37,133 nucleotides of DNA from a virus (lineage: Duplodnaviria > Heunggongvirae > Uroviricota > Caudoviricetes). A program made the translations under genes and the position numbers. Shown here piece after piece: positions 3,331 to 36,217 of this stretch. Every line of letters starts with the position of its first letter. The first letter of the stretch is position 1. The stretch is taken from the IMG/VR virus record IMGVR_UViG_2531839477_000018, one strand, 5' to 3'. The notes under the pieces are model-generated. The model saw only the letters and a program-made list of their open reading frames with translations, did no database searches and was not told where the DNA came from.

Positions 3331-3340
3331 CAGGTGCTTT

Positions 3341-3619
3341 ATGACCAAAGAGCATGCACAAGGTGTATTTATCCGTTTTATTGATTTTCGCGGTGAACTG
3401 TTATTACGCGCATCAGCCATTGACGGAGTTGTTCCATCCGAAAAAAACGCAGCTACTTACGTTTATCTGAACGGTACGCGCCTGACTGTGGAGCTTCCGT
3501 ACCAGACCGTACGAGAAATCATTAGCGAAGCTGAAAAGGCACGTCAGGTTAATGGCGATGAACCCTATATCGAAATTATTTGTATGGATTCAGAAGCTGA
3601 AATTCAGAAAGCAGATTAA
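3341..3619 (+). CDS. Hypothetical early protein
   Basis: ORF track 3281-3619; start at MTKEHAQG (3341) avoids overlap with the previous gene. Confidence 0.4.
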   Translation: MTKEHAQGVFIRFIDFRGELLLRASAIDGVVPSEKNAATYVYLNGTRLTVELPYQTVREIISEAEKARQVNGDEPYIEIICMDSEAEIQKAD

Positions 3620-3630
3620 AGGGCGTTGCG

Positions 3631-3873
3631 ATGGGCAAAGAATATAAAACTCTCATTAACAAAGCACTTGAACGATTTTATTTTCGCTTAAGTGCATCAG
3701 GCGCTCATGCTGAACATGCAGCCCGTGACTCATTGACCAGGGCAATCCGGAGTTTGTATGACGTTGCTTTTTACGCTGATGATCTGGATGCACTTAACGA
3801 ACTTTCCGAGCTGATCTGTGCCGCAGAATGCGGGGAACACATTGAACCGTATAAGCTGGGGAATATCGCATGA
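3631..3873 (+). CDS. Hypothetical early protein
   Basis: 80-aa ORF in early operon. Confidence 0.4.
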   Translation: MGKEYKTLINKALERFYFRLSASGAHAEHAARDSLTRAIRSLYDVAFYADDLDALNELSELICAAECGEHIEPYKLGNIA

Positions 3874-3983
3874 GTATATTTATCTCATGGCTTGTTCTGA
3901 TTATTTCGGTGGCCTGCGCCATTGGGATTATGCGAATTATTCATTCAGTAAAAAAGATTGAACGCTTTTTTACTGACAAATAA
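3870..3983 (+). CDS. Small hydrophobic membrane peptide (37 aa), below ORF-track cutoff
   Basis: ATGA start/stop overlap with the preceding ORF suggests translational coupling; sequence MSIFISWLVLIISVACAIGIMRIIHSVKKIERFFTDK is one TM helix plus a basic tail. Confidence 0.35.
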   Translation: MSIFISWLVLIISVACAIGIMRIIHSVKKIERFFTDK

Positions 3984-4075
3984 CAGCTTAAACAAAACAC
4001 CAGATTAAACCCGAAAACCTGAAAACTATCCGCATTCGCGGAGGTATTCGCACACGTAAATAACGGAGATATAAA

Positions 4076-4492
4076 ATGAACGCAAAAGAAAAAAATATTA
4101 TCAATACATTAAAAATAGTGTCAGCAGAGCAAGACAAGCTGTCCAGGGCAGCCCAGAAAGATAATCAACATATGGCAGCGCTTTACGCACTGACCATCGC
4201 AATAGCCGCCTCTGAAGTAGCCAAAGTTATTGAGGAACAGAGCAAAGAAATCGACACTCTTAAAACACAGTCAACAGTTGCAGCCATGAATCCGTCCAGC
4301 ATTGGACGCTGCATTTATATTCTTGGTTCAGCAATGATGCTGCAATACACCATTATTGCCGAACTGCACGGCAAATACCTGATAACGCCTTACCACACAA
4401 AAGAGTCAGAGCTTCTGACAAATCTCCGCCTGATAGAACGCTCTCAAGCTGTATTCATTGATGACGCGCAATGTGCCGTATTTAACGCATAG
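4076..4492 (+). CDS. Hypothetical protein, AT-rich moron-like gene
   Basis: 138-aa ORF with GGAG RBS; preceded by an AT-rich spacer; composition differs from neighbours. Confidence 0.45.
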   Translation: MNAKEKNIINTLKIVSAEQDKLSRAAQKDNQHMAALYALTIAIAASEVAKVIEEQSKEIDTLKTQSTVAAMNPSSIGRCIYILGSAMMLQYTIIAELHGKYLITPYHTKESELLTNLRLIERSQAVFIDDAQCAVFNA

Positions 4493-4515
4493 GGTTACTG
4501 GACAAAGGGGGCGCA

Positions 4516-4719
4516 ATGGCAATTAAGCATTTTCCCGTCGTTCGCTTTACCTCCAGAGGGCGCGAATACGAGGTCGACGAACGCCTGATTACCACTATCG
4601 ACAAACATCGTTCGGAAAAGGATGCACACCACATCTACCTCACTGACGGCACTTACTTCTGCGCCACCAACGTGGCGCGGGTGAATCTTATCCGACAGGT
4701 ACAGGAGCCACGCAGATGA
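4516..4719 (+). CDS. Hypothetical early protein
   Basis: 67-aa ORF, GGGGG RBS, 4-bp overlap with next gene. Confidence 0.4.
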   Translation: MAIKHFPVVRFTSRGREYEVDERLITTIDKHRSEKDAHHIYLTDGTYFCATNVARVNLIRQVQEPRR

Positions 4720-33219: not shown

Positions 33220-33376
33220 AGCTTCAGCCCCTTGTATCCGTTAAATGATTCAGCAACAATCATCACCCACCACGCGCGTAATCTCACCCCTGCGCTATTC
33301 TCCCGCCATGGCGACAACAAAAAGCAGTAACCCACTCCGCACGCACATGCGACCATGCCGCACAGGGAGGGAACAG
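33220..33376. promoter_or_regulatory. Divergent control region between FI (leftward) and D (rightward)
   Basis: 157-bp spacer flanked by divergent start codons; must hold promoters for both units; no canonical TGT-N12-ACA box found by eye. Confidence 0.35.
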
Positions 33377-34486
33377 ATGACCGACACCACCATGCAATTG
33401 CTCAGTCAGGGCACAGACCCCGTGAAAATGCCGGATTTTGATATTCTCGCGGAGGGTAAAACGCTGTCCGGCGTGGCAGAGCGCCTGATGAGCCTGTCGC
33501 TGACCGACAACCGGGGATTTGAGGCGGACCAGCTCACCATCACGCTGGATGATGCCGATGGCCAGTTGCAGCTACCGCCACGGGGCGCGCGTCTGACGGT
33601 TCTCATTGGCTGGAAAGGGGAACCGCTGACAGAAAAAGGCACTTACATTGTTGATGAAATCGCTCACGAAGGACCGCCGGACAGGCTGACTGTTTCAGCC
33701 AGAAGCGCAGATTTTCGGGATGAATTTAACGTTAAACGTGAGGTGTCCTGGCATGATGTGACCGTTGAGCGTGTGGTATCCGCCATCGCTCATCGGTACG
33801 GTCTGAAACCGCAAATCAGCGAAATGCTGATGGATATCGAAATCGACCACGCCGACCAGACCGAAGAAAGCGACATGTCCTTTCTTACGCGCATGGCGGA
33901 AATGCTGGGCGCAATCACCACGGTAAAAAGCGGTAATCTGTTATTCATTATGCCAGGCGGTGGCGTGAACGCACAGGGCCAGCCGTTGCCATCGTTCGCC
34001 ATCACGCGCAGCAGTGGCGATCGCCATCAGTTCCGCATTGCTGACCGCGAAGCGTATACGGGGGTACGCGCTTACTGGCTTGATCTTAATTACGGGAAAA
34101 AGAAAAAAGTCAGCGTGAAACGCCGCAAACCGCCAAAACCCAAAAAGGAGAAAAGCAGCAGCCGTGAAGGTGATTATATGGAAGGTGCGGAAGGCAATGT
34201 GTTTGTGTTACGCAAGACTTATCAGAACGAGCAGGCAGCAAGACGCGCAGCGGCGGCAAAGTGGCAACAACTACAACGCGGAGCCGCATCATTCTCCATC
34301 ACGCTGGCACGTGGACGAGCAGAACTCTACCCCGAAATGCATGGCACGGTAACAGGATTTAAAAGCGAGATTGATAATCAGGACTGGATTATTGCAAAAG
34401 CCGAGCACACCATTGATAACAGCGGCTTTACCACGCAGCTTGAGCTTGAGGCAAAAATCCCGGAATGGATAGCGGAAACAGAGTGA
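33377..34486 (+). CDS. D: Tail protein D (P2 gpD-like)
   Basis: Start at MTDTTMQLLSQG with GGGAGG RBS 7 nt upstream; the ORF-track start at 33245 adds a low-complexity leader that is probably not translated. Confidence 0.8.
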   Translation: MTDTTMQLLSQGTDPVKMPDFDILAEGKTLSGVAERLMSLSLTDNRGFEADQLTITLDDADGQLQLPPRGARLTVLIGWKGEPLTEKGTYIVDEIAHEGPPDRLTVSARSADFRDEFNVKREVSWHDVTVERVVSAIAHRYGLKPQISEMLMDIEIDHADQTEESDMSFLTRMAEMLGAITTVKSGNLLFIMPGGGVNAQGQPLPSFAITRSSGDRHQFRIADREAYTGVRAYWLDLNYGKKKKVSVKRRKPPKPKKEKSSSREGDYMEGAEGNVFVLRKTYQNEQAARRAAAAKWQQLQRGAASFSITLARGRAELYPEMHGTVTGFKSEIDNQDWIIAKAEHTIDNSGFTTQLELEAKIPEWIAETE

Positions 34487-34528: not shown

Positions 34529-34789
34529 ATGTTCCGTTGTCCGCTTTGTGGCGCATCTGCCCGTATCCGCACCAGTCGTCCGGAAAATGATTCAAACACC
34601 GTGCGGCAAAAGTATTACCAGTGTAACAACCTGGAATGCGGCGTATGCTTCTCAACACTGGAAGCTTTCCATAAATTCACATCGAAACACGCCTCCGGCG
34701 TTCACTCATCAGAAGGTATCCCGTGGCATGAGCTGCCAGCTTCACACAGGGGAAACAATCAGATGAGTTTGCCTTTACCTCAGAATTAA
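34529..34789 (+). CDS. ogr: Late gene transcriptional activator, Ogr/Delta zinc-finger family
   Basis: MFRCPLCGASARIRTSR...YYQCNNLECGVCFST matches the P2 Ogr pattern MFHCPLC....RTSR...YHQC.N..C...F (four Cys zinc finger); last phage gene. Confidence 0.85.
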   Translation: MFRCPLCGASARIRTSRPENDSNTVRQKYYQCNNLECGVCFSTLEAFHKFTSKHASGVHSSEGIPWHELPASHRGNNQMSLPLPQN

Positions 34790-34978
34790 CAGGCAGAATT
34801 GCCGGAGTAACAAAAAAGCGATAGATTACGTGCGGGTGCCTTTCGGCTGATGGTCGGAGGGAATACCCGAAGGCCGGATGTGGAAAGGCCCCGGAAAACA
34901 TTTCTGTTTAACCGAGGCCCTAACCCGTCAACCTAGCAAGTGATAGGTTAGCGCCTCTCCAACAAAGGAGCAAGCGCT

Positions 34979-35119
34979 ATGTCGCAAAAATCGCTTACGG
35001 CCATCACGTTCTGCGTGACGGTAATCCTCATCATCTGGATGCTGCACGGTTCGCTGTGTGAAATACGGATGAGCTTCTGGGGAGCGGAGTTTGCGGCGTT
35101 CTTACAGTGTAAGCAGTAA
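34979..35119 (+). CDS. Hok/Gef-family small membrane toxin (46 aa), not in the ORF track
   Basis: MSQKSLTAITFCVTVILIIWMLHGSLCEIRMSFWGAEFAAFLQCKQ: N-terminal TM helix and C-terminal LCEIR...AAFL signature of Hok/Gef; AAGGAG RBS 8 nt upstream; structured leader and hairpins around it. Confidence 0.65.
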   Translation: MSQKSLTAITFCVTVILIIWMLHGSLCEIRMSFWGAEFAAFLQCKQ

Positions 35120-35207
35120 GGAAACCGCGACGGGGAGGCAACTCCCCGTCAATCGGTTGCCGGGGTAAGGCCGATAAGGCACCCTATCTCATAGGCATGA
35201 ATAACAA

Positions 35208-35240
35208 CCCCGCAGCGTAAAAACTGCGGGGTTTCTTTTT
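35208..35240 (+). terminator. Rho-independent terminator downstream of the hok-like gene
   Basis: CCCCGCAG-cgtaaaaa-CTGCGGGG stem-loop followed by TTTCTTTTT. Confidence 0.6.
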
Positions 35241-35308
35241 GGAACTCTCACTAGCTAGTGAGCCGTTAACTGCACATAATGCTCGCACAACAAATCAGTT
35301 AAAAGAGA

Positions 35309-35704
35309 TTACTCAGCATTCTCCTGCTTCCATTGCCGGATCATTTCATCGGTAACATCACTTTCATAACATACCACGTCATACCCTCCAGTACGGCTAT
35401 ATGCACTGCGTCCACCACATCTACTACCATTCCTTGCATGATTATACGGACACGCACAATTGCCTGGATAAGATTCAATGGATTCTTTAATTATTTCTTT
35501 CTTGATCTGAGCATCTGACTTTCCTGTTGCTGCATACCCACTAAAAGATACCAAACAAAGGCAGATTGCCATTAATAAACCACATCGCATACCGATACAC
35601 TCTATTACTAACCAATCATAGCCCACATCATAAAATCGAGATGAGGAGTACAACACCTTTAACAAGAAGGTGCCATCACGATAATATGCCGTGCAATTCA
35701 TCAA
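35309..35704 (-). CDS. Hypothetical cysteine-rich secreted protein
   Basis: ORF with internal signal-peptide-like segment (MRCGLLMAICLCLVSFSGYAATG) followed by a Cys-rich ~70-aa region; weak RBS at either candidate start (35704 or about 35590); AT-rich surroundings. Confidence 0.35.
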   Translation of the reverse strand: MMNCTAYYRDGTFLLKVLYSSSRFYDVGYDWLVIECIGMRCGLLMAICLCLVSFSGYAATGKSDAQIKKEIIKESIESYPGNCACPYNHARNGSRCGGRSAYSRTGGYDVVCYESDVTDEMIRQWKQENAE

Positions 35705-35840
35705 AAAAAAGATCTATATCAAAGAGATAGAGTTATTATCAGTGCTGCAGACATCAGCATTCGAGGCAGCAGAAAGACAGTAAATCTAACGAATTTGTCT
35801 TTTTCTCAGGATGTTGTCAGATTAAAAAAGATAGAGTAGC

Positions 35841-35925
35841 GCAGACACCTTTTGGTGGATGGTAGGAGGAAAAATGAAGTTGAGTGGGAAGATCCCAGAA
35901 AAAACTTTGGTTTAACCAAGGCCCT
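35841..35925 (+). repeat. Degenerate second copy of the hok-type leader (imperfect direct repeat of 34841-34925)
   Basis: ~70-75% identity over ~85 bp with the leader upstream of the hok-like gene, including a short mok-like leader ORF; no intact toxin ORF follows. Confidence 0.4.
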
Positions 35926-36063
35926 AGTTCAATATGCGAAATGCAGATGAGTTGCAGGAGAGTTTTGCTTCACCCTTAGAGTTTAAACAGACGTGTACTA
36001 TCATTATTTCTGCATATCGCCACACCATCGCCACTTTACCGCCATTTAACAAAATACAAATAC

Positions 36064-36087
36064 AAAAAAACCACCCGAAGGTGGTTT
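36064..36087 (-). terminator. Rho-independent terminator of the glyW-cysT-leuZ operon
   Basis: Minus-strand AACCACC-ttcg-GGTGGTT hairpin followed by TTTTTTT, just downstream of leuZ. Confidence 0.6.
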
Positions 36088-36130
36088 CACGACACTGCTT
36101 ATTGCTTTGATTTTATTCTTATCTTTCCCA

Positions 36131-36217
36131 TGGTACCCGGAGCGGGACTTGAACCCGCACAGCGCGAACGCCGAGGGATTTTAAATCCCTTGTGTCTACC
36201 GATTCCACCATCCGGGC
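36131..36217 (-). tRNA. leuZ: tRNA-Leu (anticodon UAA)
   Basis: Reverse complement reads GCCCGGATGGTGGAATCGGTAGACACAAGGGATTTAAAATCCCTCGGCGTTCGCGCTGTGCGGGTTCAAGTCCCGCTCCGGGTACCA, 87 nt with CCA end. Confidence 0.95.

Follow-up and report, generated by a model that had tools for sequence, protein, structure and literature searches.

A probable relic of a second hok locus beside a complete hok/sok locus at the leuZ end of a P2/P88-like prophage

Results

The prophage and its end in leuZ

The stretch of DNA analysed here (37,133 nucleotides, IMG/VR record IMGVR_UViG_2531839477_000018, referred to as the window) holds a P2/P88-like prophage, which has inserted into the tRNA gene leuZ. Its two ends carry the integrase gene and D with ogr, respectively, and the att sequence is duplicated in such a way that the tRNA gene is restored (Table 1). 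After the phage genes come three minus-strand tRNA genes, for Leu(UAA), Cys and Gly, which make up the leuZ-cysT-glyW operon of E. coli, and then pgsA. In a K-12-type genome the distance between yecA and leuZ is 195 bp, and the only part of it common to the window is the final ~69 bp before leuZ (36062-36130).

Since the window starts at int, attL was taken from strain FORC_031, where the integrase end is 99.9% identical. Adjoining int in this strain, the leuZ terminator and the tRNA's 3' half are present a second time. This second copy differs from positions 36063-36186 of the window by two substitutions and a 2-nt gap, and it stops in the anticodon loop. An identity block of attL and attR that stops at this point in leuZ implies that the phage integrates into the gene and restores it with its own copy. 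All DNA from ogr to position 36186 is phage DNA, and both copies of the hok-type leader and the Cys-rich gene between them are phage cargo. Close to the att block there are three repeats, phased at 11 bp, which look like Int arm-type sites of attP and would be bound by Int. They are kept in E. coli NCTC9112 and in Salmonella, and related copies adjoin int in attL of FORC_031.

Table 1. Features of the window, with positions counted from its first nucleotide
Feature	Position	Strand	Remarks
Tyrosine integrase (int)	1-1002	minus	Window begins at the int stop codon
gpD (D)	33245-34486		Near the right end of the window
ogr, late transcription activator	34529-34789	+	Pfam Ogr_Delta, E 5e-14; conserved phage genes end here and the cargo region follows
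Putative hok promoter, copy 1	34799-34827	+	TTGCCG, 17 nt, TAGATT; read from the sequence
Full-length hok mRNA region, copy 1	34834-35241	+	Leader, Hok ORF 34979-35119, fbi 35170-35184, terminator 35206-35233
Predicted Sok antisense RNA, copy 1	34878-34938	minus	~60 nt; ends inferred
Putative sok promoter, copy 1	TTGCTC 34973-34968, 17 nt, TAACCT 34950-34945	minus	Read from the sequence
Perfect 16-nt palindrome CTCACTAGCTAGTGAG	35247-35262		Left edge of the cargo
Gene for 93-aa secreted protein, moron	35309-35590	minus	Sec-type signal peptide, four invariant Cys
Copy 2, probable hok promoter-leader relic	35824-35926	+	~105 nt; from local alignment with copy 1
-10-like box TAGAGT, copy 2	35832-35837	+	TAGATT in other lineages
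5' hairpin, copy 2	35846-35858
Complement of the Sok hairpin, copy 2	35888-35926
Non-homologous AT-rich spacer	35927-36010		84 nt, G+C 38%; where copy 2 would be expected to have its hok ORF and sok promoter
Putative Int arm-type sites of attP	36016-36045	+	ATCGCCAC, ATCGCCAC, ACCGCCAT at 11-bp spacing
att identity block, leuZ terminator and 3' half of tRNA-Leu to the anticodon loop	36063-36186		124 bp; right prophage end; from aligning attL and attR with the empty site of K-12 type
tRNA-Leu(UAA), leuZ	36131-36217	minus

The complete hok/sok locus

Copy 1, located next to ogr, is a complete type I hok/sok toxin-antitoxin locus as far as can be predicted from its elements. The initial annotation had assigned an intact toxin ORF to the first copy only, and this agrees with our results. 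The ORF codes for 46 residues, is preceded by a ribosome-binding site, and matches Pfam HOK_GEF (E 3.7e-7, 30.1 bits with a cut-off of 22) and phrog_251, 'MokW-like host killing' (E 2.5e-23). The NCBIfam Hok models also match the protein, but under their cut-offs. The Rfam sok model RF01794 matches positions 34834-34989 over its full length with 47.3 bits (E 8e-9), which is below the gathering score of 59, and the mRNA start was read near 34834, where this model begins. The tac and fbi elements (34834-34847 and 35170-35184) are complementary in 14 of 15 positions and form a duplex of −28.4 kcal/mol, a fold-back that hok mRNAs typically have. The Sok hairpin folds with −29.7 kcal/mol (z −3.05), and in eight distinct variants of copy 1 the mean was −33.9 kcal/mol and the mean z −5.8.

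The promoters of copy 1 were not called in a consensus promoter scan with a threshold of 9/12, which is too strict, and what is said about promoters here rests on reading of the sequence and on conservation within the family. The −10 box is a conserved feature of hok leaders, and TTGCTC-17-TAACCT is what we take to be the mirror of the R1 sok promoter. No canonical mok could be found, there is no frame initiated by ATG, GTG or TTG that overlaps the hok start, and in the leader alignment copy 1 has no start codon at the position where K-12 mokC starts. The missing mok frame and the Rfam score under the gathering threshold suggest that the regulation of copy 1 may differ in detail from that of R1 hok/sok. 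The hok mRNA would be stable, with its 5' end paired to fbi near the 3' end so that it stays inert, while the Sok antisense RNA, transcribed from its own promoter within the leader, would block translation of the toxin. Upon loss of Sok, the Hok peptide would damage the inner membrane. Over positions 34813-35184 the DNA identity to hokW-sokW, as found in Stx2a phages, is 83%, and by analogy with this tested pair copy 1 is presumably active.

The Cys-rich gene

A minus-strand gene for a Cys-rich secreted protein had been placed between the two copies, and it is indeed found there, with a signal peptide and four conserved Cys. The lengths of its homologs favour the ATG at 35590 as start over an upstream TTG. 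The four Cys lie within a strongly conserved motif, which is invariant in 39 aligned sequences. Homologs, 260 in number, occur in Enterobacteriaceae, Aeromonas, Pseudomonas, Oxalobacter and metagenomes, and their genes often adjoin integrases or defence genes. The sole family match is phrog_27544 (E 1.5e-59), with none in Pfam or NCBIfam. The AF2 model of the protein is fairly confident (pLDDT 82.6) and gave no fold match in PDB, and none of the sequenced phages searched carries the gene.

The direct repeat and the second copy

The two copies had been described as imperfect direct repeats with an identity of about 70-75%, and pairwise alignment bears this out. In the best local alignment (34812-34922 against 35824-35926) 79 of 111 columns are identical (71%), the column identity in a MAFFT alignment is 74%, and an ungapped core of 43 nt (34880-34922 and 35884-35926) reaches 79%. 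The coordinates needed some adjustment. The copies are spaced not by exactly 1000 nt but by 1004-1012 nt, and the segments first compared were shifted by a few bases. The homology also begins ~29 nt further upstream, so that the −10 box is included. The local score of copy 1 against copy 2 is 55, as compared to 18.6 ± 2.2 with a maximum of 30 in 1000 dinucleotide shuffles, and the next best match of copy 2 in the whole window, on either strand, has a score of 24. Chance similarity of the copies was ruled out by the shuffles together with the independent leader profile described below. An unrelated repeat family was ruled out as well, Rfam gives only tRNAs and sok, and the window contains no further copy.

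Two profiles of hok leaders were used, a full one made from ten leaders, and an independent one made from the leaders of NCTC9112, four Salmonella loci and K-12 hokC, without copy 1 or its close relatives. With nhmmer, copy 2 was found by both, with E 1.2e-7 for the full profile (positions 29-147) and E 3.7e-6 for the independent profile (positions 37-149), of ~203 positions. The match to the independent profile means that copy 2 is a homolog of hok leaders and not merely a look-alike of copy 1.

What is left in copy 2 is the −10 box and ~90 nt from the beginning of the leader. Copy 2 has no toxin ORF and no ribosome-binding site, it lacks fbi and the terminator, and it has neither a sok promoter nor the 5' tail of Sok. 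The last homologous letters are GGCCCTA (35926), which form the base of the Sok hairpin. From there the sequence runs into non-homologous AT-rich DNA that ends at the leuZ terminator, just as had been noted, and this spacer has no similarity to any hok locus tested. There is no Hok-like frame in 35840-36065, tblastn with Hok found copy 1 alone in all E. coli versions, and a 281-nt Rfam search gave no RF01794 match to copy 2 at E<=10. The equivalent of the Sok hairpin folds with −11.6 kcal/mol (z −0.5), no better than shuffles, and the mean z of eight variants is −0.1. Between copy 2 and copy 1 there are 16 mismatches from G/C to A/T and seven the opposite way, and the G+C content of copy 2 is 41.7%, as compared to 49-57% in ten leaders taken from loci where the hok ORF is intact.

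Sequence variation points in the same direction. The mean pairwise diversity was calculated over 25 distinct E. coli and IMG/VR versions, and copy 2 is among the most variable segments, 9.3%, with 9.4% in the spacer after it. The DNA upstream of the Cys-rich gene reaches 4.0%, and the two coding sequences have 2.5% (Cys-rich) and 0.9% (hok). The pattern in copy 2 has the look of unconstrained decay. A segment of this kind would persist merely by its position, between a conserved cargo gene and the attachment arm of the phage.

Distribution and comparative layouts

A blastn search with 35790-36065 found copy 2 in 651 of 5,426 complete E. coli genomes, at 657 places, in essence one for each genome, and nearly all with 85-100% identity. 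It is located at leuZ in every locus inspected and is unannotated in all matches listed. The full arrangement of hok, Cys-rich gene and copy 2 is present in 317 genomes. An intact copy 2 was not found in any of the 651 genomes, nor in 37 IMG/VR loci, each of which has the truncated form or is cut by IS elements or contig ends. The prophage at leuZ in O157:H7 is a remnant where IS30 has replaced the D end, ogr and copy 1, and the Cys-rich gene and copy 2 stay, which implies that copy 2 is independent of copy 1. A check against a locus without the prophage had also been suggested; the empty K-12-type site carries neither copy.

The P2-like prophage at leuZ in E. coli NCTC9112 has ogr, one hok locus, ~110 bp, and then the same attP arm, with no Cys-rich gene and no copy 2. 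This layout implies that 35243-36010 is a cargo insert of ~770 bp with low G+C content, which is uniformly 37-42% as compared to 53% for copy 1. In sequenced P88-like phages, ogr and copy 1 have counterparts with 94-96% identity, and the similarity stops at ~35242. The ogr-hok pair is also found in prophages at other att sites, near flk and near serS, and the similarity always ends at ~35242.

The leuZ prophages of Salmonella enterica (L013-L015 and L061) have ogr, two intact hok loci, a truncated third, the Cys-rich gene, the arm and leuZ. The third hok consists of the leader, the ribosome-binding site and a few codons, and then runs up against a Cys-rich gene of 68% identity, at the 3' end of that gene. 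The truncated hok is on the opposite side of the Cys-rich gene in Salmonella as compared to E. coli, and the layouts are not collinear. Tandem hok cassettes with a broken distal copy thus recur at the leuZ-phage end in both species. We have counted the Salmonella arrays as showing duplication of a resident hok locus.

Discussion

Copy 2 is probably a non-functional relic, the dead stump of a second hok locus beside the complete hok/sok locus of copy 1, and it is part of the phage cargo. It has the homology and the anatomy of a hok leader, it is phage-borne, and it has lost the remaining parts, the fold and any constraint on its sequence. The initial annotation had suggested a tandem pair of hok loci with one decayed. 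The decayed locus stands, in view of the match to the independent profile, the loss of every downstream element and the Salmonella arrays. That a complete locus once existed at this very spot is something we infer, and the relic would then have been a full locus before it decayed. The array probably arose by tandem gain of hok cassettes at the phage end, by analogy with the arrangement in Salmonella.

It is also conceivable that the relic was never resident, and that a fragment was imported together with the Cys-rich gene on the ~770-bp piece, from a donor having this gene beside a hok locus. The G+C content of the insert is uniformly low, in contrast to copy 1, and that of the relic matches the surrounding cargo. 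NCTC9112 lacks both the Cys-rich gene and the relic, the two co-occur in the E. coli versions when IS disruptions are set aside, and there is a 16-nt palindrome at the left junction. However, a hok leader (E<=1) was found in 0 of 16 other genomic contexts of Cys-rich homologs. A scan of genome contigs with the Cys-rich protein gave only distant homologs from Aeromonas, Kosakonia and Pseudomonas, none with hok. In a comparison with ten leaders, the relic had its highest scores with copy 1 and L024, the leader of an E. coli prophage near flk, both of them E. coli leaders of P2 type and not a foreign one. Furthermore, the Cys-rich gene in Salmonella abuts the truncated member of a resident hok array. 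An import of this kind seems unlikely to us.

Another explanation, proposed in the initial annotation, was a remnant of an older insertion beside the tRNA operon, and the relic could then be debris of an element integrated at leuZ before the present prophage. Serial insertions do gather at tRNA genes, FORC_031 has a second integrase island at the leuZ site, and the O157:H7 prophage at leuZ is itself a remnant. This reading fails on topology. When elements integrate in the anticodon loop one after the other, the older ones end up on the int side, not in between ogr and leuZ, and the island in FORC_031 is found on the int side. The prophage ends inside leuZ, and the DNA from ogr to leuZ is the attP-proximal arm of the phage itself: the repeats 3' of the relic match the arm repeats beside the phage's own int, and in NCTC9112 the same arm comes directly after hok. 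We regard an older element as very unlikely.

The relic of a second hok locus, as we see it, could still have been put to a new use: it might be an orphan promoter or 5' hairpin, it might regulate the Cys-rich gene, or its RNA might pair with the leuZ terminator. A −10-like box is kept (TAGAGT, with TAGATT in other lineages), and the relic is retained in as many as 651 genomes. Its 5' hairpin is complementary to the leuZ terminator in 12 of 13 positions, −20.2 kcal/mol, a value that was not reached by any of 300 shuffles or by any of 300 natural 19-mers. On the other hand, the relic has no acceptable −35 box and the scan calls no promoter there, it has no fold above background, and its diversity is at the level of the unconstrained spacer. 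The complementarity to the terminator is broken without compensation in the variants L001 and L007. The pairing is statistically unusual, but as it is not conserved in variants we have taken it as a coincidence of two hairpins with CACC/GGTG. The relic cannot act as a decoy for Sok either, since it has no target for the Sok 5' tail. It would be most surprising if the relic had been co-opted in any of these ways.

A wider version would be that the junction between ogr and attP in P88-like phages at leuZ is a hot spot for hok/sok turnover, with cassettes being duplicated, replaced and eroded time and again, and that the E. coli stump has taken on a function. It could for example be a weak outward promoter with a 5' hairpin that pairs with the leuZ terminator. 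If this were true, the pairing could influence read-through or termination in the glyW-cysT-leuZ operon of lysogens, but we find it highly improbable. Esr41 was also considered, as an sRNA in the long non-coding stretch, and was rejected as it is located in SpLE1/OI-43.

The relic is a case of ordinary gene decay, an object of a known kind that was previously unannotated, and by itself it matters little. It does account for an unannotated conserved stretch in ~650 complete E. coli genomes, including strains of O157:H7, O145, O103, O121 and O26, and the DNA between ogr and leuZ can be assigned in its entirety to the phage cargo. Together with the Salmonella array, the relic documents tandem gain and loss of hok/sok cassettes at the leuZ-phage end. 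Some caution is called for, since automated finders of toxin-antitoxin systems or sRNAs could take the stump for an orphan sok. The family of secreted four-Cys proteins, widespread on mobile elements, is a more open question than the relic.

Copy 1 shares several features with R1 hok/sok (parB): the leader, an antisense promoter with a 17-nt spacer, the fold-back between the 5' and 3' ends, and a small membrane toxin. The two differ in that copy 1 is without a canonical mok, has an Rfam score under gathering, and codes for a Hok of 46 residues as compared to 52 in R1. In K-12, Pedersen and Gerdes reportedly found in 1999 that hokA, hokC, hokE and other loci were inactivated, mostly by IS elements or point changes, with the toxin ORF kept. 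These loci and the relic are alike in that the function is lost and a recognisable leader remains, but the relic is phage-borne and consists of ~105 nt of promoter-leader alone.

The closest system studied by experiment is hokW-sokW of the Stx2 prophage Sp5 in E. coli O157:H7 Sakai, which was shown to be a type I toxin-antitoxin pair, and it is for this relative only that toxicity of Hok and neutralisation by Sok have been shown (PMC8621323). Copy 1 and hokW-sokW have 83% DNA identity, belong to the same PHROG family, are carried by prophages and have an antisense RNA from its own promoter, a predicted one in copy 1. The host phage of hokW-sokW is lambdoid, whereas copy 1 is found in a P2/P88-like phage and sits between ogr and attP, and the relic has no counterpart in the hokW-sokW study.

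Among phages, the Xuanwuvirus members P88, Chuche and 500465-2 are P88-like and have an ogr and a copy 1 that are 94-96% identical to those of the window, but they are without the Cys-rich gene and the relic. The Salmonella leuZ array is at the same site and has the same layout, from ogr and hok to the Cys-rich gene and the arm, with a truncated distal hok. It differs from the E. coli pair in having three copies instead of two, and the alignment shows its leaders to be visibly much closer to each other. In Salmonella the truncated hok, which still has a ribosome-binding site and a start codon, is found 3' of the Cys-rich gene.

Results and discussion

The gene that lies between the intact hok/sok locus and its decayed second copy encodes a small secreted protein in which the four cysteines are invariant and the core is strongly conserved (YPGxCxCPY...GxxCGxRSAxSxxGG...CY). 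Homologs, 260 in all, are spread over the Proteobacteria, the majority in mobile elements or defence islands. Searches of Pfam and NCBIfam placed the protein in no family, and its structural model (pLDDT 82.6) had no fold match in the PDB. The gene is still intact in O157:H7 strain H2495, where the leuZ prophage is a remnant (L001 4488-5895) with gpD truncated by an IS30, ogr and hok removed by IS30, and the tape-measure gene frameshifted.

Features at the leuZ end of the prophage and in Salmonella
Feature	Coordinates	Position or strand
Small secreted four-Cys protein gene	window 35309-35590	minus strand
Perfect 16-nt palindrome CTCACTAGCTAGTGAG	window 35247-35262	
Three direct repeats ATCGCCAC, ATCGCCAC, ACCGCCAT, 11-bp spacing	window 36016-36045	ahead of the att block
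Tandem hok array, two intact loci and one truncated	L013 (Salmonella enterica) 3340-4540	ogr to Cys-rich gene, at leuZ

Similarity to sequenced P88-like phages breaks off exactly at the palindrome, where the low-GC cargo starts; an insertion scar and a terminator of the Cys-rich gene are both possible readings of it. At the other prophage end, three small minus-strand genes (1008-2530) are found between int and the lysogeny switch, whose RefSeq annotations are DUF2511, hypothetical and HTH protein; these may be additional cargo.

Relatives of the three direct repeats adjoin int on the opposite arm, as seen at the attL end of the FORC_031 prophage (L006 2961-2997), and the repeats themselves are kept in Salmonella and in E. 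coli NCTC9112. They are probably Int arm-type sites. Left of attL, FORC_031 carries a second island (L006 1-2770), which encodes a 399-aa integrase of its own. This island lies between the P2-like prophage and the yecA side, and the 3' half of leuZ, in a diverged copy, separates it from the prophage; the tRNA site is here occupied in tandem.

The 5' hairpin of the decayed hok copy (35846-35858) is complementary to the leuZ terminator (36070-36083) at 12 of 13 positions, and the pairing energy, -20.2 kcal/mol, was reached by none of the shuffled sequences and none of the natural controls. The complementarity is not kept in other lineages, and the match is therefore probably a coincidence.

In the Salmonella enterica locus L014, a different Hok type, of 53 aa, takes the place of the first hok copy of the tandem array. 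In the intact locus of the window, no mok frame with an ATG, GTG or TTG start in 34900-35060 overlaps hok. R1 hok and K-12 hokC, in contrast, both have an overlapping mok frame, which implies that the control of translation by Sok may work differently here.
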